Positions 18,016 through 63,050 are shown, counted from the stretch's first letter. The stretch: 64,000 bases of DNA from Chloroflexota bacterium (GCA_028874075.1 JAPPLU010000037.1:37318-101317), one strand, 5' to 3'. Program-made: numbers and translations. The notes: generated by a model not told the origin, from the sequence alone.

Positions 18016-19635
18016 CTATTCTCGCGTATTGCTCGCCGGCTGTCCCCAGCCACCGCCGCCGGGCGTTCGGATGCTCAAGATGTCGCCCGCTTCCACGTCC
18101 AGGGTCTCCTTGCCGGCGAGGTGGACCTCCTCGTAACCGCCCTTGAGCAGGACGTTCTCACCCGGCTGACCGTGATGTCCTCCGTGGAAGCCCGGCGGGT
18201 GAAACTTGCGGCGTTCCGACAGGATGGTAAGCCGGGCCGGACTGAGAAATTCAACGTCCCTAACCAGGCCGTCGCCGCCCTTGTGGAGGCCGTCGCCGCC
18301 GGACCCGCGGCGCAGGGCGTACCGCTTCAATCGCAGCGGAAAGGCAAACTCCAGGGCCTCAATTGGGGTGTTCATGGTGTTGGTCATGTGGGTGTGGATG
18401 CCGGAGATGCCGTCCTTGGTGGGCCGGCCGCCCATGCCGCCTCCTATCGTCTCGTAGTAGACAAAGGGCCGTTCCCGTTCCAGGTCGTGGCCGCCGATCA
18501 GGAGGTTGTTCATGGTTCCCTGGCTGGCAGCAGGAATCAGTTCGGGGAGGGCCTGGGCCATGGCCGTAAGCAGTACGTCGGTGATGCGCTGGGAGGTCTC
18601 AACATTGCCGCCGGCCACGCCTCGCTGCGGTTCCGGATTTACCAGGGTACCCCGGGGGGTGATGACGTTTACCGGGCGCAGGCAACCTTGATTGGCCGGC
18701 GCATCGTCGCCCACCACGCAGCGGACCATATAAAGGCTGGCGGACATGGTAACTGCCTGGGGAGCGTTGATGCACCCCGGGCGCTGCCGGGAGGTTCCGG
18801 TGAAGTCGATGGTCATTGAGTCGCCGGCGATGGTAATGGCTACGGCGATGGGTACGGGTTCTTCGGTAAGGCCGTCGTCGTCCATGTAGTCCACCACCCG
18901 GTATTCGCCGTCGGGGATGCGGCTGATGGCCTGCCGGGTCACGCGCTCCGAATAGTCCAGCAGGGCCGCCATGTGTTCAGCGGTTTCGGCAACCCCGTAC
19001 CTTTCCACCACTTCCTGAAGGCGCTTTTCACCCACCCGGATGGAGGCTATCTGGGCGGCCAGGTCGCCGCGCCGTTCCTCGGGGGTGCGGGAGTTGCGAC
19101 AGATAATCTGGACTACTTCCTGGTTCAGGCGGCCGCCCCGGGCCAACTTGATGGGAGGGAGAATCATACCCTCCTGGTACAGTTCGGTGGACAGAGGGAG
19201 AGAACCCGGGGTCATGCCTCCCACGTCGGCGTGGTGGCCCCGGTTGGAAACGAAACCCACCATTTGCTTTTCACCGTCGACAGTGACGAAGACGGGCGCG
19301 ACCAGTGTGATGTCGGGCAGGTGGGTGCCGCCCAGGTAGGGGTCGTTGAGGATAACCATGTCTCCGGGACGGAGGGAATTGGGGAAGGTGTCCAGGGCAG
19401 CCTGTACCGATGCCGGCATGGCACCCAGGTGGACGGGCTGGTGGGCTGCCTGGGCTACCATCTGTCCTTCCGGATCAAAGATGGCGCAGGAAAAGTCCCG
19501 CCGTTCCTTTATGTTGGGGGAATAGGCGGTGCGGAGCAAGGCCACGCCCATCTCCTCGGAGACGGAGATGAACATGTTCTTGAAGACTTCAAGGCTGATG
19601 GCGTCAACCGGCATATCATCCTCCGGGGCTTTCAC
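18016..19635 (-). CDS. hyuB: hydantoinase B/oxoprolinase family protein
   Basis: 539 aa. [37 protein letters not shown] and [12 protein letters not shown] are typical of HyuB. Confidence 0.9.
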
Positions 19636-19659
19636 AAAGAGAAACGGAGAAGCAGAGAT

Positions 19660-20058
19660 TCATAGAACATCTGAGAGTTTGGCTTCAGGATTTATCAGAC
19701 GACGTATTCCTTCCCTCAGGGTTGGCGAGTGAAAGTTCATCAGCAGGCCCGCCGGCCATCCACCTAACTTAAGGTAAGTCAATACCTGTGCGGAGTGGAC
19801 CGGCAGCAGATGTTTCACAGCTTTTATTTCAACAACGACGTTCTTCTCAACCAAAAGATCTAACCTATACCCGGATTCCAGCATCAATCCCTTATAGCTG
19901 ACGGGCAAAGCCAGTTGACGCTGAAAGTTTATTTTCTGTAACTCCAACTCTCGGCATAGACACTCTTCTCAGGCGGATTCCAGCAAACCGGGCCCCAAGG
20001 TACGATGTACTTCTATAGCTGAACCGATTATAGCCTGTGTAATGGCGTTGACTTCCAT
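19660..20058 (-). pseudogene. GxxExxY-family (PD-(D/E)xK-like) gene interrupted by an in-frame TGA
   Basis: ATG 20058 gives [29 protein letters not shown]-[TGA 19971..19969][18 protein letters not shown]..., in the same frame as listed ORF 19660..19947. The stop replaces the Tyr of the family's G-L-L-E-S-x-Y motif. Confidence 0.7.
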
Positions 20059-20110
20059 GAGTCCCTGTGAAACTCCGTTTCTTTGAGCCTCTTTGTGGAG
20101 GAGAATTGAC

Positions 20111-20941
20111 CTACAGACCTCCCAGCAGGTCCGCTTCGGCGGGTGCATCCTTGGGGGAGACGAGGGTGTAGTATTCGGTGCCCATGATTTCCCGCATCAT
20201 TTCCTGGGGCAACAGGGCGAAGGGGCCGTCCGGGTTAATCTGGGTGCGGTGGCAGTTCAGGGAGTCGATCTTGGTGTCAACGTACTCGCTGATATCCAGA
20301 ACCGTCGTCACTTCATCGTCCGGTGTTCCCACCTTGTCGATGTCCTGGCTGGCGAAGGGTGGGCTGATATCCATTTCCACCATTTTCCGCCACATACGCT
20401 GGAAGTTGCTGCGGGGGAAACAGACGAAATAGAGATAAGATCCTATCATTTCCGGATCATTTGCCGCCAACGCATAGGCGTCCGAAGTGTGGATGCACAT
20501 GGCCTTGTGGTCCGGGTGACCATACCCGCCCGACGGATCGTGGGTTACCACTACATTGGGTCTGGTCTCCTTCATAATTTCTACCAGCGCGCTTACTACC
20601 ACCCTAGGATCGGCCTGGTGCAAGGAGTTGGGATGCTCGTTATCTTCTGTACCCTCCATTCCCGAGTCGCGGTAGTTGAGGAAGCGGATGTCAGTTACGC
20701 CGGTTACAGCCATGGCGTCTATCAATTCCTGCTGCCTAACCTGAGCCAGGGTCTCCGGCGTGGCCAGCGACGGGTCGCTGATTTCTCCAACGTCGCCATT
20801 GGTGCCACAGACCAGGGTTACCTGGGCACCGCGGGCGACCAGCATGGCCAGCGTGCCGCCGCTGCCAAACCCCTCATCGTCGGGGTGGGCGAAGGAAAAT
20901 AACAGGCGCAGGTGGGTCAGGTCTTTAAGGGGAGTTGTCAT
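20111..20941 (-). CDS. PIG-L/LmbE-family deacetylase
   Basis: [16 protein letters not shown] zinc-binding motif and a later HPDH. Confidence 0.85.
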
Positions 20942-20985
20942 GTATGGAGGCCCCCGAAATGCCGTTCAAGGATGATGGATTGAAC

Positions 20986-22986
20986 CTAAACCGGTTCCAG
21001 TACCAGGTTGCCATGGAGGTCTACGACTCCTCCCCAGCCCGGTGGAACTACTATGGTTGTATCCAGCTGGACCAGCAGCGCCGGACCTTCTATTCGGTTG
21101 CCAGGCTGCAGCAGGTCCCGGTTATACAGAGTGGCGGCAAACGCTCCCTGTTGGAATACCACCTCGGTCTCGCCCATTTCGGCTGCTGACCCGTTGACCT
21201 GTCCCTGCTGCTGGACGGCTGCCTGGGGCTTGTCTACCGCCAGTTCCATCTTGAGGCGCAGGTTGACGATCTCCACAGCCTCGCTGCGGTCGGCGTAGCC
21301 AAAGCGCTGTAGGTGAGCCTGATAGAAGCTGTTAGCGATGGCGCGCTGCAGATCGGCGCGGCGGGACAGGGACGGGTAGTCGACGGTCAGCTCAAAAGAT
21401 TGCCCCACGTAGCGGGCGTCCAGGTAGCGGCGGGATTCCATTTCGTCGGCGGGCAGACCTTCCTGCCGCAGTTCGACTCTGGCCTGGCCCTCCATTCCGT
21501 GGAACTCTTCCTCCAGCCTGACCTGGTTGATGTCTTCCCCACGAAGCATAACCGTGCGGGAGTAGTCCTTGACGATGTCGGCAATGGCGACGCCCAGGGC
21601 GGACAGAATACCTGGGTGAGTGGGAACCAGCACCCGGGGGATTCCCAACTCCTGGGCGAGTTCGCAACTGTGCATGGGACCGGCGCCGCCAAAGGGCACC
21701 AGGGTAAATAGGCGAGGGTCGTAGCCCCGTTCCAAGGAAATGGTGCGAATGGCCCGCTCCATGTTGGCATTGACCACCCTGATGATGCCCAGGGCTGCGT
21801 CTTCCGAGGTAGTCCCAATCTCCCGCGCCAGGTCTGAGATGAGAGCCTGAGACCGTTCCCGGTCAAGGGTCAACCGGCCACCCAGAAACTGGGCGGGCAT
21901 CAGCCTTCCCAACGCCAGGTTGGCGTCCGTTACGGTAATGCGGTCGCCCCGGCCGTAGCAGGCAGGCCCGGGGTCTGCACCCGCCGATTCCGGACCGACA
22001 ACGAGGGCGCCGCCTGAGTCGACGCGGGCAATGGAACCTCCCCCGGCGCCCACCGTATGGATTTCTATCATTGGCACGCTGATAGGATAGCCGCCGAGGG
22101 TGGCTGACGTCGTCTCCTTGATGCGCCCGGGGCAGAGGGAAACGTCGGTGGAGGTGCCACCCATGTCGAGCGTAATGATGTCGGGATAGCCGGCCTGGCT
22201 GCCGGTGTGGAAGGCCCCGACAACTCCGCCGGCAGGGCCGCTGAGTATGGTGCGGACGGGCTGTTCCGAGGCCAGCCGGGCGGTGATGCTGCCGCCCGAG
22301 GACTGCATGATGCGCAGACCGCTGCCAAGAGACTGTTCTAGTTCGCCCAGGTACCTGGCCATTACCGGCCCCACGTAGGAATTTACGACCACGGTGCTGG
22401 TGCGCTCATACTCTCGGAATTCGGGTATGACCTGGGAAGAAACGGATATGAAGGGAGCTTCACGCATCTGACGTAGTGCGGAAAGGAGTTTCTCTTCGTG
22501 CAGGGGATTGAGGAAGGAGAAGAGGAAGGACACTGCTACCCCATCCACCTGCGCTTCCTGAAGCAGGCCAAGCAGGGTCTCGACAGCCTCATCCTGCAAG
22601 TCTTCCAGGATTTCACCCTTGTAGTCCACCCTTTCGGGCAGCCCGAAGCGCAGTTCCCACGGGGCCAGGGCAGGGGCCCGGTCCAGGTTCAAGTCGTACA
22701 GGTCGGACCGGCTCTGCCTGCCAATTTCCAGGACATCCTCGAAGCCCAGGGTAGTAACCAGGGCCGTGCGGCCTCCCTTGCCTTCCAGCAGGGCGTTGGT
22801 GGCGACGGTGGAGCCGTGGACGTATTGGGCCGGCCCGGCGTCGATTTCGGCTATGCCCTGGCGTACGCCCTGGGACGGGTCTGCGGGTGTGGAAGGAAGT
22901 TTGTGGACGGACAGGACGCCATCCTGGAGAATGGCAATGTCGGTGAAGGTTCCGCCGACATCGATGCCGACTATGGTTTGAGTCAT
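20986..22986 (-). CDS. hyuA: hydantoinase A/oxoprolinase family protein
   Basis: 666 aa with an N-terminal IGIDVGGTFTDIA ASKHA fold and a second DMGGTSTDV. Confidence 0.9.
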   Translation of the reverse strand: MTQTIVGIDVGGTFTDIAILQDGVLSVHKLPSTPADPSQGVRQGIAEIDAGPAQYVHGSTVATNALLEGKGGRTALVTTLGFEDVLEIGRQSRSDLYDLNLDRAPALAPWELRFGLPERVDYKGEILEDLQDEAVETLLGLLQEAQVDGVAVSFLFSFLNPLHEEKLLSALRQMREAPFISVSSQVIPEFREYERTSTVVVNSYVGPVMARYLGELEQSLGSGLRIMQSSGGSITARLASEQPVRTILSGPAGGVVGAFHTGSQAGYPDIITLDMGGTSTDVSLCPGRIKETTSATLGGYPISVPMIEIHTVGAGGGSIARVDSGGALVVGPESAGADPGPACYGRGDRITVTDANLALGRLMPAQFLGGRLTLDRERSQALISDLAREIGTTSEDAALGIIRVVNANMERAIRTISLERGYDPRLFTLVPFGGAGPMHSCELAQELGIPRVLVPTHPGILSALGVAIADIVKDYSRTVMLRGEDINQVRLEEEFHGMEGQARVELRQEGLPADEMESRRYLDARYVGQSFELTVDYPSLSRRADLQRAIANSFYQAHLQRFGYADRSEAVEIVNLRLKMELAVDKPQAAVQQQGQVNGSAAEMGETEVVFQQGAFAATLYNRDLLQPGNRIEGPALLVQLDTTIVVPPGWGGVVDLHGNLVLEPV

Positions 22987-32040: not shown

Positions 32041-32359
32041 AAGTCCTCCTTGCAGCCGTCCGGAAAGGGGTGGCGGAATTTGCCACGTTGTAGTGCAGTT
32101 GGAAGGTACCATAGAGTACAAGGGGACGCAATTATTGCCTCCCTGGAAGCAGATTTGCGATTCTGGCGGCTGACTGTACCGTAGGGCCGAGGTTGGGTGG
32201 CTTTTTGGGGTTCTTGAGACACAAGGATACCTTTTTCATCCAGTGAGACCCTATTCGTGCCCGCCCGGCTTAAGCCCAAATCGGGAAGTGGGCCTATTGA
32301 CGGATGACGCTCGAGGTAGTAATCTTGGCCTCAGTCCACTGGGAACTTTTACAATTAAA

Positions 32360-32545
32360 AAGCACCTGAAGGTGTCCGCCGCAGGCGGATGAAAAGGGAA
32401 GCCGGTGAAACTCCGGCGTGGTCGCGCCACTGTAACTGGCAAGAACCTGCCCAATCCTGAATGGAAGCCACTGTCCGCCTCAGGCGGATGGGAAGGCGGG
32501 CAAGTTCGTTAATAGCCAGGAGCCAGGAGACCTGCCTTCAGCTGA
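32360..32545 (+). promoter_or_regulatory. cobalamin (B12) riboswitch aptamer
   Basis: AAGGGAAGCCGGTGAAACTCCGGCG..GCGCCACTGTAA...GCCACTG..GGGAAGGCGG...AGCCAGGAGACCTGCC (B12 box). P1 pairs CTGAAGG (32366-72) with CCTTCAG (32535-41). Confidence 0.85.
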
Positions 32546-32592
32546 GTACCAGGTACGCTTCGCGGTAGGGTGTATGGTGTTTTGAAGAATTC

Positions 32593-33401: not shown

Positions 33402-34763
33402 ATGACCAAGGCCGTAGTTATAGCCGGTGTCCGCAGCGGCGTTGGCAAAACCACTATAGCCACAGGAATCATGGGCGCACTTACTCGTCGCGGCCATCAG
33501 GTACAACCCTTCAAGGCCGGCCCCGACTATATCGACCCCTCCTACCACAACCTGGCATGCGGAGTACCGTCCCGTAACCTGGACACCTGGCTGTTGCCTC
33601 ACCCCACGGTTACTGAACTGTTTCGCCGGGCTGGTGATGACGACAAGGTCTGCGTGGTAGAAGGCGTGATGGGCGTATTTGACGGCCATTCCAGCCTGAC
33701 AGAGGAAGGGTCCACAGCCCAATTGGCCAAGCTTTTGAACGCCCCCGTCATTCTGGTAGTCGACGCCGCCAAGGTGGCCCGCAGCGTGGCGGCCGAGGTC
33801 CTGGGCTACCAGACCTTTGACCCTTCCCTGCGCATAGCCGGTGTGATCCTGAATGGAGTCGGCGGCCTCCGGCACATGGAATTCTGTCAGCCACAGATAG
33901 AGGCTACCACCGGCTTGCCGGTGCTGGGCTACTTGCCAAGACGAGAGGCGTTCGTCCAGCCCGAACGGCATTTGGGTCTAATTCCCACGGTAGAAGGCAC
34001 GGTTGTCCAGGAATGGTATGACGCCCTTGTGGCCCAGGTGGAAGAAACCATCGACCTGGACCGAATTCTGAAAATATCCGGCACCGCAAGCCCGCCAAGT
34101 GGAGACCCGCAGGTCTATCCCTCAGAACCGCAACCGGTAGCGTCCCGCATCGCAATAGCCCAGGACAAGGCCTTCAGCTTTTATTACCAGGACTCTTTGG
34201 ACCTCTTACAAGCCTGGGGGGCAGAACTGGCGCCGTTCAGCCCATTAGCCGATCAAGCTCTCCCCGAAGGCGTGGGCGGCGTTTACATCGGCGGCGGATT
34301 CCCCGAGATGTTCGCCAGGGAGTTATCGGAAAACCGTCCAATGCTGGATTCAATGCGGGACGCTTTGGCCAGGAATATTCCGGTGTATGCCGAATGCGGT
34401 GGCCTGATGTACCTGGGCCGCAGTCTTTCCGATCTGGATGGCGCAGAGTACCCAATGGTGGGGGCTCTTCCAGTCATAACTTCGATGAGTAACCGAAGGC
34501 TGACGCTGGGTTACCGGGAAGTGGAGGCTTGCGAGGAAACGCCGATTCTGAAACGGGGACAACGAGTGCGCGGGCATGAATTTCACTGGTCTGTGCTGAC
34601 GGAACAACCCACTGCCGAACAGGCTGTCTACCGCGTAGTGGACCAGGAAAATCGCCTTGAAGGTTTCAGGGTCGGCAGCGTCTGGGCGTCCTATATTCAC
34701 GTGCATCTGGGAAGCGCGCCAGGCCTGGCTCGCAAGTTTGTCGAAACCTGCGTGTTAGAATAG
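33402..34763 (+). CDS. cbiA: cobyrinate a,c-diamide synthase
   Basis: [20 protein letters not shown]-loop and a C-terminal glutamine amidotransferase with [11 protein letters not shown]. Confidence 0.9.
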
Positions 34764-34836
34764 GCTTACCTGCTTGGTCCGGTTCACCGAGGAACCGATT
34801 GAGGGGCAGGCAAACCAGCCGGAGGATAGTTGCAGA

Positions 34837-35409
34837 ATGAGCACAAACCAGGAGACCCAGGAAGGGCCCCAGTCGGTAAAGGGTCCCCGCATTAACAAGG
34901 GCCTGGTTATTGTCAACACGGGTAACGGCAAGGGCAAGACCACGGCAGCGATGGGGGTTCTGTTCCGCGCCTGGGGCCGCGACATGCGGGTCATTATGCT
35001 GCAATTCATCAAACATACCACTGCCAACTTCGGAGAGCAGCGGGCGGCTCAGAAAATTGGCGTCTCCATGCGGGCCATGGGCGACGGATTTACCTGGCGA
35101 TCCCGAGACCTGGATCAGAGCGCCGACTTGGCCCGAGCGTTGTGGGAAGACGCCAAGGAAGTGCTGGCGTCGGAAGATTACGACGTGGTTGTGCTGGATG
35201 AATTCACCTACCCTATGCACTATGGCTGGATAGAAACGGAAGAAGTTCTTGAGGCACTCCGGAATCGCCCGGAAATGGTTCACGTAATAATCACCGGCCG
35301 GCACGCTCCCGATGCCCTGGTTGACTACGCGGACCTGGTGACGGAGATGAACGTAGTCAAGCATCCCTACCAGAGCGGCATAAAAGCCCAACCAGGCATT
35401 GAGTTTTAG
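34837..35409 (+). CDS. cobO: cob(I)yrinic acid a,c-diamide adenosyltransferase (CobO/BtuR type)
   Basis: [25 protein letters not shown] and LDEFTYPM. I prefer ATG 34837 over the listed TTG 34774. Confidence 0.9.
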
Positions 35410-35467
35410 CTGGCCGGCTTTCCCCGTCGGCGGGGCGCCTGGCCGCAATTGACTTCAGGAGACTTCT

Positions 35468-36544
35468 ATGACCATCTCACCACTGGTTGACACTACCGTC
35501 GACAGCATAACCCCCCTGAATGAGGCGGCCATGGCTGCGGCCCGGGCCAGGCAAGATACATTGACCAAACCCCTGGGCAGCCTGGGTCGGCTGGAAGACC
35601 TGTCTGTCATGCTGGCCGGCATGTTTGGCGATCCGGTACCCCGCATCAACCGAAAGTCGGTAATCCTGGCTGCCGCAGACCACGGCGTTGTGGCCGAGGG
35701 GGTCAGCGCTTATCCCCAGGAAGTAACCCCTCAAATGGTGTATAACTTCCTGCGGGGCGGCGCCGGAATTAATGTGCTGGCCCGCCATGCCGGAGCCGAT
35801 ATTGTAATCCTGGATGCGGGTGTGGCCTCGGACCTGGAGCCTAACCCCCTGCTGCGATCGGTTAAGGTAGCTTACGGCACGGCCAACATGGCGGTGGGCC
35901 CGGCCATGACCCGTGAGCAGGCCATTCGCTGCCTGGAAATAGGTATCGATGCTGCCAGAGAGCAGATTGGGGAAGGAGCGGACCTGATTGCCTGCGGCGA
36001 CATGGGAATTGGCAATACCACTGCATCCAGCGCAATAACGTCCGTTGTCACAGGCGCCGATCCGTCGACGACGACAGGCCGGGGCACTGGCCTGGACGAT
36101 CCGGGCCTGGCCCATAAGGTTGAAGTGATCCGGAGGGCTATCGATGTGAACCAACCGGATCGGGCCGATGGCCTTGATGTCCTAACCAAAGTGGGTGGGC
36201 TGGAAATAGGGGTACTGGCCGGCGCCATGCTGGGAACGGCGGCCAGCAACCGGCCAGTGGTCGTGGACGGCTTCATTTCGGGAGCAGCAGCCCTGATAGC
36301 CTGGCTCATTTCCCCGACGGCGCGGGACTACTTCATCGCCGCCCATCAGTCGGTGGAGCCGGGCCATCGAGTGGGCCTGGATGCCATGGGCCTTACGCCC
36401 CTGCTGGACATGAACATGCGCCTGGGCGAAGGCACCGGCGCCGCGCTGGCCATGCACCTGATAGAAGCGGCGTCCCTCTGCCTGGCAGAGATGGCAACCT
36501 TTGCCGAGGCGGGCGTTTCGGAACGCAGCGATGATGAGGAGTAG
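35468..36544 (+). CDS. cobT: nicotinate-nucleotide--dimethylbenzimidazole phosphoribosyltransferase
   Basis: LTKPLGSLGRLE, GDMGIGNTTASSA and a C-terminal MRLGEGTGAA. Confidence 0.9.
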   Translation: MTISPLVDTTVDSITPLNEAAMAAARARQDTLTKPLGSLGRLEDLSVMLAGMFGDPVPRINRKSVILAAADHGVVAEGVSAYPQEVTPQMVYNFLRGGAGINVLARHAGADIVILDAGVASDLEPNPLLRSVKVAYGTANMAVGPAMTREQAIRCLEIGIDAAREQIGEGADLIACGDMGIGNTTASSAITSVVTGADPSTTTGRGTGLDDPGLAHKVEVIRRAIDVNQPDRADGLDVLTKVGGLEIGVLAGAMLGTAASNRPVVVDGFISGAAALIAWLISPTARDYFIAAHQSVEPGHRVGLDAMGLTPLLDMNMRLGEGTGAALAMHLIEAASLCLAEMATFAEAGVSERSDDEE

Positions 36545-36646
36545 CCGACAAGTAAAGACCGGGCACACTTTCGATGGTGCGCATTGCCCAATTCTCTTGC
36601 AGTCCTCTTGCTTTCAGCACAACGGTTGGACCTAGGGTAGAAACAG

Positions 36647-37447
36647 TTGGCCTCCCTACTGGCTGCCCTGAGCTTCTTGACCATTTTCCCCTCGCCAAAG
36701 AGCGCGGATCTTTCCCAGCAGGTTGTCAGCAACTCCCGCGCCTGGTTTCCGCTGGTGGGCTTGCTTATCGGCATCCTGATGGTGGGGCTGGAATGGTCGT
36801 TGGGATATCTCTTCCCCCCGTACCTGACTGCAGCTCTGCTGGTGGTCTTACTGGTAATCGTTAATAGGGCGCTGCACCTGGACGGCTTGATGGATTCCTG
36901 CGACGGGCTCTTCGGCGGAAATACACCGGAGCGTCGTAGGGAGATTATGCGGGATTCCAGCGTGGGAGCTTTTGCGGTGGCGGGCGCCGGCAGCGTCCTT
37001 CTTCTCAAGTACGGCGCGCTCTTGTCTCTGCTGTCGGTGAGCGTTCCGGGCAAGGAGGCGGCGCTACTGGTTTTTCCGGTCGTCTCCCGGTATGCCATGG
37101 TGCTCCAGTTGATGGTGTATAACTATGTTCGCACGCCCGGCCTGGGGTCTCCCTTTCACGGCAGAGACGCCCGGATTCCCTCCATCGTGGCGGCGATTAT
37201 AGCGGCCCTGGCTGTCGGGATATTGGGAGGCCTGGGCGGAATCTTGATACTGGCGGCAATATGCCTGTTTGCCCTGGCTCTGGGGCAGGTGGCCGTCAGG
37301 TTAATTGGGGGATTGACGGGCGACATATACGGGGCCACAAACGAGCTATCGGAAGTGGCCGCTCTACTAGGCGCAGTTGCGCTGTTGCCCCTGGGATTGC
37401 TTTCTCCCGTAACCCACCAGGTGAGTACTTATCTTGGGGCCTTCTGA
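36647..37447 (+). CDS. cobS: adenosylcobinamide-GDP ribazoletransferase (cobalamin synthase)
   Basis: ALSFLTIFP, HLDGLMDSCDG and GLTGDIYGA in a polytopic membrane protein. Confidence 0.85.
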   Translation: MASLLAALSFLTIFPSPKSADLSQQVVSNSRAWFPLVGLLIGILMVGLEWSLGYLFPPYLTAALLVVLLVIVNRALHLDGLMDSCDGLFGGNTPERRREIMRDSSVGAFAVAGAGSVLLLKYGALLSLLSVSVPGKEAALLVFPVVSRYAMVLQLMVYNYVRTPGLGSPFHGRDARIPSIVAAIIAALAVGILGGLGGILILAAICLFALALGQVAVRLIGGLTGDIYGATNELSEVAALLGAVALLPLGLLSPVTHQVSTYLGAF

Positions 37448-38405
37448 CTTGCCCAGTTACCTGGCCGGCATCCCTCTTGATGTGGGGGTTGTCTTGCTGG
37501 CCATTTTGCTGGACCTAGTCGGCAGGGAATTTCCGGCGCGGCTGCATCCTACGGTCTGGATAGGCAATACCATCCGCCTGGCGGAACAAGCAGCTCCCCG
37601 CACCAGGGTTGGAGGATTGACTGTCGGAGCCCTGATGGCGTTGCTAATTCCCGCCGTCTGGGCGGTGGCAGCCTGGCTGGCAGCGTGGGGCCTGCGGGAA
37701 CTGCACCCACTGGCATACCTGCTGGGTGGCGCGATATTGTTGAAATCCACCTTTGCGGTGGGGATGCTGCACCGGGTCGCTGCCAAGACCCGTTCGCTGG
37801 TTGTGGCTGGGGATATGCCGGCCCTTAGGGAAAATATGCGGTCGTTGGTCAGCCGGGATGTATCGGCGATGGGTTCTGAGCAGGCCGTCGCCGCCACGGT
37901 AGAGTCAGTCTCCGAGAATACGACCGACAGTTTTGTCGGCCCCTGGCTGGCTTTTGCCTTTTTTGGTCTTCCGGGAGCCTTTGCCTACCGCGCCATCAAT
38001 ACGCTGGACAGTATGATAGGCTATCGTGGCGAGTACGAATTCCTTGGCAAGGTGGCGGCCAGGCTGGACGACCTGGTGAACCTGGCGCCGGCGCGACTGA
38101 CTGCCCTGCTTTTGGCTTTGGGAAGCGTCCTGCTGCCTGGGCAGCGGGCCGCCGAGGCGTGGCGCATAATGTGGCGCGATCACTCCCTGACAGCCAGTCC
38201 CAACGCGGGCTGGACAATGAGCTGTATGGCCGGGGCTTTGGGCGTGGCGTTGGAGAAGGAAGGTCATTACCGTTTAGGCGACGCCAGCCGTCCCCTGGAA
38301 GCAGCTGACATCACCCGCGCCGTACATTCCATGTATTTCATTGCGGGAGTGGCGGCGGTGATGGTGGTGGCCCTGATCATCGTAAAGGAACGGTTCCTGG
38401 GGTGA
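37434..38405 (+). CDS. cbiB: adenosylcobinamide-phosphate synthase
   Basis: HPTVWIGN, SENTTDSFVGPW..FG..GAFAYRAINTLDSMIGY and PNAGW. The start is uncertain and the listed ORF overlaps the cobS end. Confidence 0.88.
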   Translation: MGPSDLPSYLAGIPLDVGVVLLAILLDLVGREFPARLHPTVWIGNTIRLAEQAAPRTRVGGLTVGALMALLIPAVWAVAAWLAAWGLRELHPLAYLLGGAILLKSTFAVGMLHRVAAKTRSLVVAGDMPALRENMRSLVSRDVSAMGSEQAVAATVESVSENTTDSFVGPWLAFAFFGLPGAFAYRAINTLDSMIGYRGEYEFLGKVAARLDDLVNLAPARLTALLLALGSVLLPGQRAAEAWRIMWRDHSLTASPNAGWTMSCMAGALGVALEKEGHYRLGDASRPLEAADITRAVHSMYFIAGVAAVMVVALIIVKERFLG

Positions 38406-39517
38406 AGACTGAACCCAAACCTGCCCAACAATCCAGCGGCCGACCGGTACACGGCGGTATCCGGCCGGCTCAATTGCGTACACTCGGGCTGGACTCGTCG
38501 GATGTGCTGGATTTCAGCGCCAGCGTGAGTCCCCTCGGCCCACCTAAGGGACTCTGGGAGGCTTTGCAGGGAGTTGATCTCACGGCCTACCCGGACCCGG
38601 AATGCCTGGAGCTGAAGGAGGCGCTGGCAGAGCTTCACGGGTTAGATGTAGACCATGTCCTTGTGGGAAACGGTTCTACCGAGCTTATACATTTGCTGGC
38701 CCGGTCATATTTGAACCAACCCATCGGTGGGGTCGAACGCTCCGTGCTGACATTTACGCCCACCTACGGCGAATATTCGGGCGCCGGCCTGCTGGAAGGG
38801 GCAAAAATCCGGGAGGTTGCAGCGTGTCGCGAAGCAGGGTTTGCCTGGGACCTGGAACGGGCCGCCGAGTTAATTGCCACCCGGAAACCGGCCCTGGCGT
38901 TCCTATGCAACCCCAACAATCCCACCGGCGTATACCTGGGCAGTGAGGATGTTGCGGGTCTAGTCCTGGCAGCCAAGGGATCGGGAACCCTTTTGGTATT
39001 GGACGAAGCCTATGTAAATTTTGTTGAGGACCGGTGGGATGCCACGTCTTTGCTGGAGGGAAGCGCCAGGAAGAGTGTCGTTCTGCTTCGGTCAATGACA
39101 AAGGACTATGCACTGACCGGCTTGCGGCTTGGTTATGCCCTTGCCTCGCCGGAGGTTGTGTCCAGGCTGGGCAGGCTGCAGCCGGACTGGAGCGTCAACA
39201 GCCTGGCACAAATTGGCGGACTGTACGCATTGGCCGACACCGGCTACCTGCCCGGCGCGCGCCGGGCAGTTGGGGAGGCGAAGGACTTTCTGTTGGAAAG
39301 CTTCAAACAAATGGGATTCCATCCGCTACCGTCTGTTGCCAATTATCTCCTGGTGGAGGTTGGGGATGGAGCCGTGTGGCGGGAAAAACTGATGCGCCGC
39401 GGGTTATTTGTTCGTGATTGCGCTTCCTTTGGGCTGCCAGACTGCATTCGCATAGGGATCAGGGCCATGCCGGACTGCCGGAGACTGGTTGGCGCCATGA
39501 TGGCGGAGGTGGATTGA
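38402..39517 (+). CDS. cobD: threonine-phosphate decarboxylase (class I/II aminotransferase fold)
   Basis: PLP-lysine region SMTKDYALTGLRLGY and NPNNPTG. Its GTG start overlaps the cbiB stop (GTGA), and the cob operon context supports the call. Confidence 0.75.
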   Translation: MKTEPKPAQQSSGRPVHGGIRPAQLRTLGLDSSDVLDFSASVSPLGPPKGLWEALQGVDLTAYPDPECLELKEALAELHGLDVDHVLVGNGSTELIHLLARSYLNQPIGGVERSVLTFTPTYGEYSGAGLLEGAKIREVAACREAGFAWDLERAAELIATRKPALAFLCNPNNPTGVYLGSEDVAGLVLAAKGSGTLLVLDEAYVNFVEDRWDATSLLEGSARKSVVLLRSMTKDYALTGLRLGYALASPEVVSRLGRLQPDWSVNSLAQIGGLYALADTGYLPGARRAVGEAKDFLLESFKQMGFHPLPSVANYLLVEVGDGAVWREKLMRRGLFVRDCASFGLPDCIRIGIRAMPDCRRLVGAMMAEVD

Positions 39518-39604
39518 CGGCAAGGGTGGCCAGGCTTTCCGTTGATTTCTCAATTCAGGCAGGCTTGCACAAGTTGACAGACCGAAACTGAGGAGAACAC
39601 TTCC

Positions 39605-40219
39605 ATGGGCAACATCTATATCGTACGTCACGGCGAAACCATGTGGAACGCCGAGGGTCGCATTCAGGGGCACACCGACGTTGGACTGACCGGGAGGGGT
39701 AAGGAACAGGCGCGAGCAACGGCGCGCCGGCTGGCGGACATACACTTTAATGTGGCTTACTCAAGCGATATGAGCCGCACCCGGGACACCGCCGTGATCA
39801 TCCTGGGCGAAAGGGAAACTCCACTCCATTCGGTGCCGGAGCTGCGGGAGTACAATAAGGGCGTCTTTGAAGGGTTGACCCCGGAGGAATACCGGCAGCG
39901 ATATCCAGACCTGTTCCAGGCCTCTCTGGTCAATGACCTCGATTTCGCACCCCCGGGGGGCGAGACTATCCGCCAGTGCCAGGCCCGTATGACCAGTTTT
40001 GCAGGCATGCTAAAGGACAAACACCTCGAAGAAGATGTGCTGATCGTTGGCCACGGCGGTTCACTGCGTAGTGGCATCGTCTCCCTGCTTGGACTGCCGC
40101 TGGAAGCGAACTGGAAGTTTGTGATGCACAACTGTGCCCTGTCCGTCATTCGGTCCTATCCCGATAATGCGGTAATGCACCTTTACAACGACACGTCCCA
40201 CCTGGCGGGGGTTCAATAA
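39605..40219 (+). CDS. cobC: histidine-phosphatase family, alpha-ribazole phosphatase-like
   Basis: IYIVRHGETMWNAEGRIQGHTD (RHG motif) and a later GHGG, in the cob operon context. Confidence 0.75.
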   Translation: MGNIYIVRHGETMWNAEGRIQGHTDVGLTGRGKEQARATARRLADIHFNVAYSSDMSRTRDTAVIILGERETPLHSVPELREYNKGVFEGLTPEEYRQRYPDLFQASLVNDLDFAPPGGETIRQCQARMTSFAGMLKDKHLEEDVLIVGHGGSLRSGIVSLLGLPLEANWKFVMHNCALSVIRSYPDNAVMHLYNDTSHLAGVQ

Positions 40220-40247
40220 CGCCGGGCGAGTTTGCTCCACAAGAAAG

Positions 40248-41834
40248 TTGAATGCAATGAATCAACATAACACACCGTTAGGCAAGGTCTTAATGGTCCA
40301 GGGAACTGCTTCCCACGTGGGGAAGAGTGTCCTGGTGTCTGCCCTGTGCCGCATCTTCCGCCAGGACGGGTTTCGGGTCGCGCCGTTCAAGGCCCAGAAC
40401 ATGTCAAACAACTCCTACGTTACCCGGGATGGTGGGGAAATAGGCCGTGCCCAGGCGGTGCAGGCGGAGGCCGCAGGTGTAGAAGCACGGGTGGAAATGA
40501 ATCCGGTTTTGCTGAAACCCGAGGCCGACCATATCGCCCAGGTAGTCCGAATGGGGCGGCCAATGGTTTCCGCCAGGGTGAAGGACTACTTCGGCCTAAA
40601 GGCGCAGCTGTGGGAGTCAGTCAGTTCATCCCTGGACACGCTCCGCAGCGAGTATGACATTGTCATCATCGAAGGGGCCGGCAGCCCCGCGGAAATCAAC
40701 CTCAAGGCCACCGAAATTGTCAACATGAGGGTGGCGCTGCACGCAAGCGCCCCGGTGCTGCTCTGCGGTGACATTGACCGGGGTGGGGTTTTCGCGGCAT
40801 TGGTGGGTACGCTGGAACTGCTGGAACCCCGAGAACGGGAAGCGATCAAGGGCTTCATCATCAACAAATTCAGGGGCGATGCCAGCCTGTTGACTGACGG
40901 CCTGACCATGCTGGAAGACCGCACCGGTATTCCGGTGGCCGGCGTTGTGCACCATTACCGGGAAATCCATATTCCTGAAGAGGACTCGGTGGCGCTGGAT
41001 ATCCCCATGAGGTCAGGCGACAGCGGCCAAGGCGCCACGCTGGATATAGCAGTAATCCAGCTGCCGCACATTTCCAACTTCGATGACTTTGACCCCCTGG
41101 CCCGGGAGCCCGGAGTCAATTTGCGTTACGTCAGCAACGCCGGCGAACTGGGCGATCCTGACCTGGTTATCTTGCCGGGCAGCAAGACAACCATCCCCGA
41201 CCTGGCCTGGATGAACTCCCAGGGATTAGGCCGCGCCGTTCAGGATCTCCACAATAGGGGTGCGGCCATTGTTGGAATCTGTGGTGGTTACCAGATGCTG
41301 GGACACCGATTGTACGATCCCGACGGTATCGAGTCACCCATCCCGGAAATGGATGGACTTGGGATTCTGCCCCTGTCCACCGTTTTTGCCGGCACGAAGG
41401 AGACTCACCGGATTCGCGGAGAGGTAGTTGAGGCCACCGGACTATTGAAGTCCGCCGGTGGAGCATCCTTGACCGGTTACGAAATTCACATGGGCCGTAC
41501 CACCGGCGAAGGTGTAGCGTTGCCGTTTTTGATCCATGACCGGACTGACGTTGCGGTGACTCCGGAAACTGCATTCGATGGTGCGATGGATGAGTCTGGA
41601 AGCGTTTTAGGGACATACATTCACGGTTTGTTTCACAATGTGCAACTGCGGCGCGCCATACTGGAAGAACTGGCTGGCCGGAATGGTAGGGCGCTCCCCG
41701 GAGTCGCCGAATTGGAAGCGATGGACACTGAGTTCGACAAGCTGGCCGACTGGGTGCGGGGCAGCCTGGACATGGACTTAATCTACGACATTACGGGGCT
41801 GGACCGAAATTTCGACCGGATCGGGCTCCCGTAG
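40248..41834 (+). CDS. cobQ: cobyric acid synthase
   Basis: LMVQGTASHVGKSVLVSALCR, IEGAGSPAEINL and a C-terminal GATase with GICGGYQMLG. The start is TTG 40248 or ATG 40257. Confidence 0.9.
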   Translation: MNAMNQHNTPLGKVLMVQGTASHVGKSVLVSALCRIFRQDGFRVAPFKAQNMSNNSYVTRDGGEIGRAQAVQAEAAGVEARVEMNPVLLKPEADHIAQVVRMGRPMVSARVKDYFGLKAQLWESVSSSLDTLRSEYDIVIIEGAGSPAEINLKATEIVNMRVALHASAPVLLCGDIDRGGVFAALVGTLELLEPREREAIKGFIINKFRGDASLLTDGLTMLEDRTGIPVAGVVHHYREIHIPEEDSVALDIPMRSGDSGQGATLDIAVIQLPHISNFDDFDPLAREPGVNLRYVSNAGELGDPDLVILPGSKTTIPDLAWMNSQGLGRAVQDLHNRGAAIVGICGGYQMLGHRLYDPDGIESPIPEMDGLGILPLSTVFAGTKETHRIRGEVVEATGLLKSAGGASLTGYEIHMGRTTGEGVALPFLIHDRTDVAVTPETAFDGAMDESGSVLGTYIHGLFHNVQLRRAILEELAGRNGRALPGVAELEAMDTEFDKLADWVRGSLDMDLIYDITGLDRNFDRIGLP

Positions 41835-61097: not shown

Positions 61098-61287
61098 CCG
61101 TCCTGGTGGAGTGTCGCCGGCTGCCCGTATTGGGTTGGCGTCCGAGCGGCCTGGCCTGGGCCCTTGTGTGCCAGGGGTCCGAGAATCCAGGGGGGTGAAG
61201 AGGTGGAGTCTCTGCGACCCCTGACATTATATACTACGCACAATAAATAAGTACGGATGTATTATAGCAAGTGCAATTTGCAGTTTG

Positions 61288-61791
61288 CTACCTATTAGGC
61301 GCTGGGTAGTCTTCCAGGTTGAAGGGCTGCCCGTTCAGGTTGATGGTGTCCTCAAACAGCTCAGGCCGGCCGAAAGACTGGCGGGCAAAGCAGCCGTTAC
61401 GGGCATTACGCATCACGCCGGCCACCCGTTCCGGAGAATCACCGGACTCCACGTCGTAGTGAATGGCTATCTTGTCTGCCTTGGCCTGGATAGTCTGCCG
61501 GAGCACCGAGCCTTCGGCTGAGACCGTGTAACCGATATTGGCCTTGATCTGGCCCATGTCCACTTTCATCATTTGAGCGTACCGCTCAAGCTGGGTCATT
61601 TCTCAAAACAGGATGGCTACCGCAAAGTAGGTCATGGGTGAGGGCGCCGTGTTATCGCCCATGGGGGGACCCTCGTCGCACATGATGGTGAATCCCCGGG
61701 CCTCCGCCTGTTTCTTCATGCCGTCCAGGGTCATGGCATCGCCCTGGATGGTGAATGACCTGGAAAAGCGGTCATTGTCCGGTGTGGTCAT
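61288..61791 (-). CDS. OsmC/Ohr-family peroxiredoxin-like protein with in-frame TGA (candidate selenocysteine at codon 63)
   Basis: ATG 61791 with an AGGAG RBS. The product reads ...CDEGPPMGDNTAPSPMTYFAVAILF-[TGA 61605..61603]-EMTQLERYAQMM...NARNGCFARQSF. Listed ORFs 61603..62049 and 61288..61599 are in the same frame. The TGA sits where the first conserved Cys of the OsmC family lies. Confidence 0.65.
61573..61589 (-). promoter_or_regulatory. SECIS-like hairpin downstream of the OsmC-like TGA
   Basis: Minus strand: UGA, 13 nt, then UUGAGCG-GUA-CGCUCAA (7 perfect bp, G-U-A loop). Confidence 0.5.
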
Positions 61792-62021
61792 GGCGTTCTC
61801 CTTTCCGGTTGAATTGGGGGGAAGTATAGCACGGGGTGGGCGCATTGTTGTGGTAGTACGATCATCCTTTGGCATATAGCCGAGGAAGAGGGCAGCATTG
61901 CCTGCTTTAGCCCCTGAGTCAGGCGACAGTCGTAAATTTGGGACCTCTATTGCTGTACAATGTGGGCGATTGCATTCTGCCAGCCATTCCGCAGGACGAG
62001 ACGAACCCACAGGAGGACGAT

Positions 62022-62408
62022 ATGCCCATAATTGACCATTCCCAGGCACCCGAGGTTCCGTGGCGGCCCGGTTACCGCAAGTGGGATGTTGCTGGCCACG
62101 AGCAAGGGGTTACGAGCACATTCAGCATAAATACCGCCGAACCAGGGGCCGGCGCTCCCCTTCACACCCACACCATTGATGAGCTGATTGTGATAGTGGA
62201 GGGTACCCTGGAGGTAAGCATGGATGGTGAAACGCAAACCGTAGGGCCCAACCACACCGTGGTCATTCCGCCTGGAGCCGAGCACGGCTTCCGGGTTACC
62301 GGCAGCGATACAGCGCACCTGTTGGTCTTTTTCCCAGCGCTGAATCCCTATTCCGAGGAACATACCCACTACCTGGAGGGGGCGCGGCCTGCTTCCGTAG
62401 GTGACTGA
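62022..62408 (+). CDS. cupin-domain protein
   Basis: GAGAPLHTHTIDELIVIVEGTLEV...PPGAEHGF (cupin motifs 1 and 2). ATG 62022 is preceded by AGGAGG. Confidence 0.8.
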   Translation: MPIIDHSQAPEVPWRPGYRKWDVAGHEQGVTSTFSINTAEPGAGAPLHTHTIDELIVIVEGTLEVSMDGETQTVGPNHTVVIPPGAEHGFRVTGSDTAHLLVFFPALNPYSEEHTHYLEGARPASVGD

Positions 62409-62489: not shown

Positions 62490-63050
62490 ATGACCTGGAT
62501 CAGACAGGAAGACGTGGGAATGCCTGGCATCATCAGTTCAATGTCCATAAACCCGAAAATGATGGAAGCGGTGCGAAACCTGAACCAGGCCGTCAGTTTC
62601 GGCGCATCGGAGTTGACGCGGGTCCAGGAAGAGTCCATAGCCGTAGCCGTTTCGGTGATGAACCGTTGCCGCTATTGAGCATCCGCCCACGGGGGGTTCC
62701 TCCGTCAACACTCCGACGACCCGGAATATGCCAGTCACATACTGCACGACTACACCACCGCCGACCTGGACCCACAGACCCGAGGAATGCTGGATTTTGC
62801 CGTTAAACTGACCAGGCAACCGACGGAAATGAGGGAATCAGACGTTCTTCAACTGCGGGAACTGGGCCTGACTGACGAGCAGATACTGTCGGTCGTGGCG
62901 ATTACCTGCCTCTTCAACTTTATGAACCGGCTGGCCGACGGCCTGGGTGTGGACATTGAAGCCGACCGGCAACAGGCAATGGACCGCTGGGTTACCGGCC
63001 CGGCCCGCGACCAGGACTGGTTGTGGGCGTTCAAAGAGCAGAGGGTTTAG
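62490..63050 (+). CDS. AhpD/carboxymuconolactone-decarboxylase-family peroxidase-related protein with in-frame TGA (candidate selenocysteine at codon 63, C-R-Y-U motif)
   Basis: ATG 62490 with a GGGAGGAG RBS. The product reads ...IAVAVSVMNRCRY-[TGA 62676..62678]-ASAHGGFLRQHSDDPE...LDFAVKLTRQP...FNFMNRLADGLGV. Listed ORFs 62490..62678 and 62787..63050 are in the same frame with no other stop between them. The family motif is N.C.YC...H. Confidence 0.65.
62689..62705 (+). promoter_or_regulatory. SECIS-like hairpin downstream of the AhpD-like TGA
   Basis: UGA, 10 nt, then ACGGGGG-GUU-CCUCCGU (7 bp including one G.U, G-U-U loop). Confidence 0.5.

Follow-up and report, generated by a model that had tools for sequence, protein, structure and literature searches.

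The locus and its surroundings

Near the end of the stretch of Chloroflexota DNA analysed here (hereafter the window, 64,000 nucleotides in total), an OsmC-like gene is located on the minus strand that contains a single in-frame TGA and very probably codes for a selenoprotein. The gene and the elements belonging to it are:

61288 to 61791, minus strand: putative OsmC-like selenoprotein gene of 167 codons, including the UGA predicted to specify selenocysteine (Sec) 63, ending in TAG, with matches to Pfam OsmC and NCBIfam NF041052
61798 to 61802, minus strand: Shine-Dalgarno sequence AGGAG, 6-nt spacer to the ATG at 61791, read directly from the sequence
61603 to 61605, minus strand: in-frame TGA, putative Sec codon, residue 63, opening the UxxT motif (U-E-M-T)
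61590 to 61602, minus strand: 13-nt spacer between UGA and hairpin (GAAAUGACCCAGC), which holds the invariant GAR-AUG
61573 to 61589, minus strand: hairpin proposed as bacterial SECIS element; its stem UUGAGCG/CGCUCAA has 7 bp and encloses GUA (alternatively, 6 bp around GGUAC)
61390 to 61392, minus strand: codon of Cys134, which corresponds to the resolving-type Cys of the OsmC fold, the second of its two conserved Cys

As read from the sequence, the frame extends on the minus strand from the ATG at 61791-61789 to the TAG at 61290-61288 and comprises 167 sense codons. The only stop inside it is the TGA at 61605-61603 (codon 63), which is directly followed by GAA ATG. The ORFs listed at 61603..62049 and 61288..61599 share one frame, and the view of the original prediction that these two pieces represent one gene was confirmed, including frame, start codon, ribosome-binding site, the TGA-GAA-ATG junction and the sizes of the two halves (62 aa and 103 aa). 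Furthermore, the translations of the orthologues begin at the same MTT... as the product starting with the ATG at 61791.

Just past the stop codon of the gene, the intergenic stretch at 61231-61287 is AT-rich, compared to 59% GC for the window, and contains a short palindrome (GCAAAUUGCACUUGC). The search of this stretch with Rfam returned a chance-level match only (JA04, E = 1.2); the stretch may act as a terminator or as the promoter region of the ABC transporter genes that follow downstream. Elsewhere in the window, a cobalamin riboswitch was found on the plus strand at 32353-32553 (Rfam RF00174, 113.7 bits), and downstream of it a cluster for cobalamin biosynthesis/salvage at 33402-41834, which includes cobT (35468-36544), cbiB (37434-38405), cobD (38402-39517) and cobQ (40248-41834).

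Family assignment and the position of the TGA

With U entered as Cys, the 167-aa product matched the NCBIfam model NF041052 with 140 bits (cutoff 95, E = 4.9e-41), and the match spans residues 16-154 of the product and positions 3-144 of the 144 positions of the model. NF041052 is a curated NCBIfam model with the name "OsmC_like_Se, OsmC-related (seleno)protein". The Pfam model OsmC (PF02566) matched residues 45-141 with 47.2 bits (gathering score 27.5, E = 3e-12). Both scores bear out the assignment to the OsmC/Ohr/YhfA family, which had been proposed before from the residue pattern.

Among the solved structures, the closest one by sequence is the OsmC-like protein 3cje, with E = 3e-7 for the single sequence and 2.4e-24 with the family profile. 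In this alignment, GLTGCVMTQ of 3cje pairs with AILF-U-EMTQ of the window product and KKGCF with RNGCF. The U column is occupied by Cys in the PDB entries 3cje, 2opl, 9wo1, 2onf and 1vla (T. maritima OsmC) according to the profile alignment; in 3cje and 2onf both redox columns, U63 and C134, are aligned to Cys. An exhaustive HMMER search with the C-terminal piece of the OsmC-like protein yielded 99 relatives, approximately 20 of them full-length (165-200 aa). In alignment A1, Cys occupies the U column in 19 of the 21 full-length homologues, with the consensus GFCLLTQxxRYA, and the second Cys column (C134) is invariant; at the nucleotide level, the redox codon is TGC in the Cys-form loci L076-L083. 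The alignments to Cys-containing homologues and to the PDB structures therefore assign the TGA to the first of the two Cys positions conserved in the OsmC fold, which we take to be that of the peroxidatic Cys in the characterised OsmC/Ohr enzymes. This agrees with the initial claim that the TGA falls into the catalytic Cys column and that the second Cys is kept. Moreover, the UxxT motif is present as U63-E-M-T66 and is the same motif as published for OsmC-like selenoproteins (PMC1088965, Table 3; PMC2398784, Table).

Conservation of the TGA among orthologues

Related sequences were collected in two ways. When one genome of each GTDB species was scanned, 30 OsmC-like loci were obtained, all from Dehalococcoidia/Chloroflexota/SAR202 MAGs and several of them from sponge metagenomes; the window is approximately 91% DNA-identical to one of them (L001 on OZ219949.1, a Dehalococcoidia MAG) over 5.7 kb. 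A metagenome scan (alignment A2) added 45 further, mostly marine loci, 44 of which cover the TGA column. In all 75 orthologous sequences (the window, 30 genome and 44 metagenome loci), codon 63 is TGA, and none of them has TAA, TAG, TGC or TGT in this column. The protein is conserved on both sides of the TGA down to approximately 57% identity, and at their actual ends the genes in question terminate variously in TAG, TAA or TGA. The complete absence of TGC and TGT from these 75 close relatives argues against a sequencing error. It had been named at the outset that decayed sequence behind the stop in orthologues, or re-sequencing that shows TGC or TGT, would speak against a selenoprotein. The orthologues keep the TGA together with intact, conserved sequence after it, and a Cys codon is found in none of the 75 close relatives.

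A few of the approximately 75 orthologues are damaged elsewhere in the gene. The metagenome locus L061 has an additional stop (CDER*PMG), and L071, P0093, P0094 and P0096 have a frameshift in the C-terminal half. Such extra stops and frameshifts are likely assembly errors or decaying copies.

The codons next to the TGA are conserved as well. UGA GAR AUG (Sec-Glu-Met) is found in all 75 Sec-form sequences, compared to C-[L/V/H]-L-T in the Cys-forms. The invariant AUG two codons past the UGA could represent a codon context for recoding or a fallback site for re-initiation. It is also the reason why gene callers emit the 103-aa fragment. A word-indexed protein search found 96 homologues, nearly all of which are fragments of 92-104 aa that begin with MTQLERY... 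or MMKV..., i.e. right after the TGA, which means that gene callers consistently cut the OsmC-like Sec family at one and the same point. GenBank contains the 103-aa C-terminal piece of the window gene (61288-61599) unchanged as MDE2938170.1, "hypothetical protein OXR67_04530 [Chloroflexota bacterium]". Hence, the public annotation truncates this gene and misses the selenoprotein, and since nearly all database homologues are truncated alike, the selenoproteome of this lineage is systematically under-called.

A hairpin under nucleotide-level selection downstream of the TGA

The sequence UUGAGCG-GUA-CGCUCAA begins 13 nt after the TGA and corresponds to the RNAfold centroid structure; the perfect 7-bp hairpin with GUA loop that had been noted at 61573-61589 was thereby recovered base by base. 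Its folding energy is unexceptional for the base composition (z = -1.6 over 43 nt, -0.4 over 66 nt). The thermodynamic z-score was dropped as a criterion, and the conservation of synonymous sites was used instead. Covariation in the hairpin is not significant: only one change affects both sides of a pair, and shuffling did equally well in 87 of 500 cases. In the hairpin alignment, 95.8% of the cells are paired (27 distinct sequences). In this compensatory change, the loci L060 and L073 have a C-G instead of the U-A pair, brought about by a synonymous change from CTT to CTC plus a change from CAA to CGA, which costs the replacement of Gln by Arg.

At the codon level, the constraint is strong. 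Among the 31 genome-derived sequences, the stem codons are CTT (28/30), GAG (31/31), CGG (31/31), TAC (31/31) and GCT (30/31), and the codons for Leu, Arg and Ala vary freely in the rest of the OsmC-like gene. The normalised synonymous entropy of the hairpin codons +4 to +9 is 0.153 compared to a median of 0.74, the lowest value among 58 windows of six codons in 62 distinct sequences (permutation p<1e-5). GAGCG..CGCUC, a portion of the stem, is favoured already by the conserved peptide E-R-Y-A. Four distinct homologues of the Cys form that encode the same (L/V/I)ERYA peptide served as control: they have TGC at the redox position, use other codons (e.g. CTG GAG CGC TAC GCC) and do not keep the 7-bp hairpin.

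Rfam searches of the whole window at gathering threshold and of 61200-61900 at E<=10 gave no SECIS-type match, only chance matches (JA04, E = 1.2; sR4, E = 8.4). To our knowledge, Rfam holds no general bacterial SECIS model; we treat this null result as uninformative. According to published surveys, bacterial SECIS elements follow the UGA directly on its 3' side as stem-loops whose small apical loop contains G (PMC1088965). The hairpin matches this geometry and is an RNA element under selection at the nucleotide level.

These observations have to be weighed against the possibility that the UGA simply terminates translation and ribosomes re-initiate at the AUG two codons on, so that chains of 62 aa and 103 aa together form an OsmC-like fold without the first Cys. 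The presence of this AUG in 75/75 sequences, the Leu instead of Met at its position in the Cys-forms and the fact that the 103-aa piece is routinely called by gene callers are compatible with such a split gene. However, it would remove exactly the catalytic residue of the family, and it leaves unexplained why the codon is TGA in 75/75 sequences when the real terminators of the same genes are TAG, TAA and TGA, and why the synonymous sites 13-29 nt downstream are frozen. Moreover, the internal AUG is not preceded by a Shine-Dalgarno-like sequence. We regard two separate chains as very improbable and prefer the reading of the UGA as a Sec codon within one 167-residue protein.

The AhpD-like neighbour and gene order

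A second gene with an in-frame TGA lies approximately 700 nt from the OsmC-like gene and is transcribed divergently from it. The features on this side of the locus are:

61938 to 62408, plus strand: cupin-like ORF between the two putative selenoprotein genes, start uncertain, with weak cupin-type NCBIfam matches (E ~1e-5)
62490 to 63050, plus strand: candidate AhpD-like selenoprotein gene (TIGR01926, peroxidase-related), 186 codons, motif C-R-Y-U, 129.7 bits (cutoff 81.8)
62676 to 62678, plus strand: TGA within the AhpD-like frame, in place of the second Cys codon of CxxC, present in 20/20 sequences
62689 to 62705, plus strand: candidate SECIS of the AhpD-like gene, predicted by folding, ACGGGGG-GUU-CCUCCGU, 7 bp, 10 nt past the UGA

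An AhpD-like gene with the same in-frame stop accompanies the OsmC-like gene in 19 of the 30 genome loci, where the stop was read as TGA in all 19, and in the metagenome loci L031 and L032. Its hairpin is conserved in 20/20 sequences; the codons +4 to +9 are nearly frozen, and the G/A variation that does occur keeps G-U or A-U pairing. As a measure of stability, the z-score of this hairpin is not significant. The cupin-like ORF is situated upstream of the AhpD-like gene in the same orientation and is syntenic in 19/30 loci. In 17-22 of the 30 related genomes, the genes follow one another as MBL-fold hydrolase / AhpD-like (Sec) / cupin / OsmC-like (Sec) / ABC transporter.

The OsmC-like/AhpD-like pair is not among the adjacent selenoprotein pairs of the GOS survey (PMC2398784). 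In the more distant marine orthologues L033-L075, no AhpD-like neighbour was found within 1.5 kb, and because of this the linkage may reflect lineage-specific synteny only. The conserved adjacency in SAR202-type sponge symbionts suggests a redox partnership that is accessible to testing.

Capacity for Sec decoding and use of UGA

ARAGORN detected no tRNA genes in the 64-kb window and therefore no tRNA-Sec there; likewise, NCBIfam scans of approximately 37 of its ORFs found no SelA, SelB or SelD. Information on the decoding machinery comes from a close relative. The locus L018 on MPMM01000003.1 (MPMM00000000) is 88% identical and has the same TGA, the hairpin and the AhpD-like neighbour. The MPMM genome is SAR202 bin22 (Slaby et al. 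2017; PMC5649159, Table 2), for which two SelA, one SelB and one SelD are listed (PMC5649159, Table S4). The Sec machinery of bin22 together with the second Sec-type gene in the window supports the Sec-decoding trait indirectly.

TGA terminates 7 of the 24 family-assigned genes of the window. In this organism, UGA therefore serves as an ordinary stop rather than as a general sense codon. When the window was scanned for other pairs of ORFs split by TGA, 162 candidates appeared, nearly all of them spurious overlaps in high-GC DNA; recognisable conserved flanks were seen only for the OsmC-like gene, the AhpD-like gene and a gene of the GxxExxY family.

The latter gene is located on the minus strand at approximately 19663-20058 (TIGR04256, 143 bits, cutoff 35), and its TGA (19971-19969) occupies the position of Tyr in the motif (G-L-L-E-S-A-TGA). 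It is probably a pseudogene, because its TGA is not at a redox position. The interrupted gene is situated between two large genes resembling those for caprolactamase/hydantoinase-type subunits on the minus strand (18016-22986), CapB-like at 18016-19635 and CapA-like at 20986-22986, both of which score far below the equivalog cutoffs.

In some uncultivated bacteria UGA has been reassigned, and under limiting selenium Cys can enter at Sec-UGA codons. Along these lines, the UGA of the OsmC-like gene might specify one of the standard amino acids (Cys, Trp or Gly), either by read-through with a near-cognate tRNA or because the genetic code is altered. We consider this very improbable as well, since TGA ends 7/24 confidently assigned genes of the window as well as several orthologues of the OsmC-like gene itself, in-frame TGAs with conserved flanks occur at the redox Cys of two known selenoprotein families only, and a hairpin constraint of the SelB type is present. 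A pseudogene or a sequencing/assembly error, i.e. a nonsense mutation or a miscalled base in a Cys-type OsmC gene, would be in line with the lone in-frame stop, which resembles a fresh nonsense mutation, and with the GenBank entry of the tail alone as hypothetical protein, but it is effectively refuted by the same TGA in 30 species-level genomes and 44 independent metagenome contigs, by the conservation of both halves with a normalised synonymous entropy of ~0.7 beside unchanged protein sequence, and by the lack of any TGC or TGT allele among the 75 sequences.

The candidate selenoprotein of the original prediction is hence backed by the Cys column, the TGA in 75/75 sequences, the frozen hairpin codons and the NF041052 match. 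We are highly confident that the window gene genuinely encodes a Sec-containing OsmC-like protein.

Proposed decoding and chemistry

If the general bacterial mechanism applies, UGA codon 63 of the 167-residue OsmC-family protein would be read as Sec, with the mRNA hairpin 13 nt past the UGA acting as a bacterial SECIS element. The apical part of this hairpin would be bound by SelB-GTP carrying Sec-tRNA(Sec), and, with the UGA placed in the A site, this complex would deliver Sec to the ribosome, competing with release factor 2. By analogy to the OsmC/Ohr family, Sec63 may then attack a hydroperoxide to form a selenenic acid, which Cys134 would resolve to a selenenylsulfide, and an external thiol or selenol reductant would presumably re-reduce the latter. 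Sec insertion and SelB binding, as well as the activity as a peroxidase and the reductant used, are only inferred here, in part from this general mechanism and in part from the family.

Peroxidase activity is less well established for COG1765/YhfA-like proteins than for OsmC or Ohr proper. The proposed peroxidase step is the weakest link of the mechanism, because this subfamily is uncharacterised as far as we know. It is the subfamily to which the OsmC-like selenoproteins were assigned (PMC1088965, Table 1).

The gene pair invites speculation on the reductant. The OsmC-like (UxxT) and the AhpD-like (CxxU) proteins might form a dedicated relay for the detoxification of hydroperoxides, in which the AhpD-like protein would re-reduce the selenenylsulfide of the OsmC-like peroxidase, similar to AhpD, which reduces AhpC. 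At present we consider such a relay rather unlikely.

Comparison with known systems

OsmC-like selenoproteins with the UxxT motif and a predicted SECIS were described from the Sargasso Sea with three sequences (Zhang, Fomenko & Gladyshev 2005; PMC1088965), and the GOS data contained five Sec forms compared to 161 Cys forms (Zhang & Gladyshev 2008; PMC2398784). They are also named in reviews from 2022 and 2026. The statement in the original prediction that such proteins had been proposed from marine metagenomes was correct, and the window gene is a member of this known family described in 2005 and 2008 rather than a selenoprotein of a new kind. With OsmC-like UxxT selenoproteins catalogued since 2005, the scientific addition is small; its value is practical and lies in annotation, in the sample and in the gene pairing. 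The Sec-form sequences now number at least 75, compared to 3-5 in the original surveys, and with their nearly invariant candidate SECIS they offer clean material for testing bacterial SECIS models.

Compared to the NF041052/UxxT family, the window copy does not differ in anything substantive. It scores above the cutoff, has the UGA at the first Cys followed by E-M-T, keeps the second Cys, and has, right behind the UGA, a stem-loop whose small apical loop contains G; the marine origin is shared as well. What can be added is its origin, a Dehalococcoidia lineage of the SAR202 type that is sponge-associated or marine, and its location beside a second putative selenoprotein gene in that lineage. 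With the two-cysteine organic hydroperoxide peroxidases of the OsmC/Ohr type (PF02566; PDB 1vla and 6mjn; closest structure 3cje), the protein shares the domain, both filled Cys columns (U and C) and the D-E-x-x-x-G-G/D..P.P motif upstream of the first Cys. However, it has a predicted Sec in place of the first (peroxidatic) Cys, belongs to the COG1765/YhfA-like branch and shows low similarity to the characterised enzymes (profile E = 2e-4 to 1e-3 for 1vla and 6mjn).

In E. coli, the minimal SECIS element comprises a stem-loop of 17 nt, which is separated from the UGA by 11 nt. The candidate hairpin of the window resembles the E. coli fdhF-type SECIS in its location within the coding region directly 3' of the UGA (here 13 nt after it), in its length of approximately 17 nt and in the G-U in the apical loop. 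It differs in that it lacks the bulged U and has a predicted loop of only 3 nt, or of 5 nt if the closing G-C pair opens. Finally, the neighbouring gene at 62490-63050 corresponds to the AhpD-like selenoproteins with the CxxU motif (COG2128/TIGR01926; 'AhpD-like 1' of the GOS survey): it has C-R-Y-U, a downstream hairpin and a score above the cutoff of TIGR01926.
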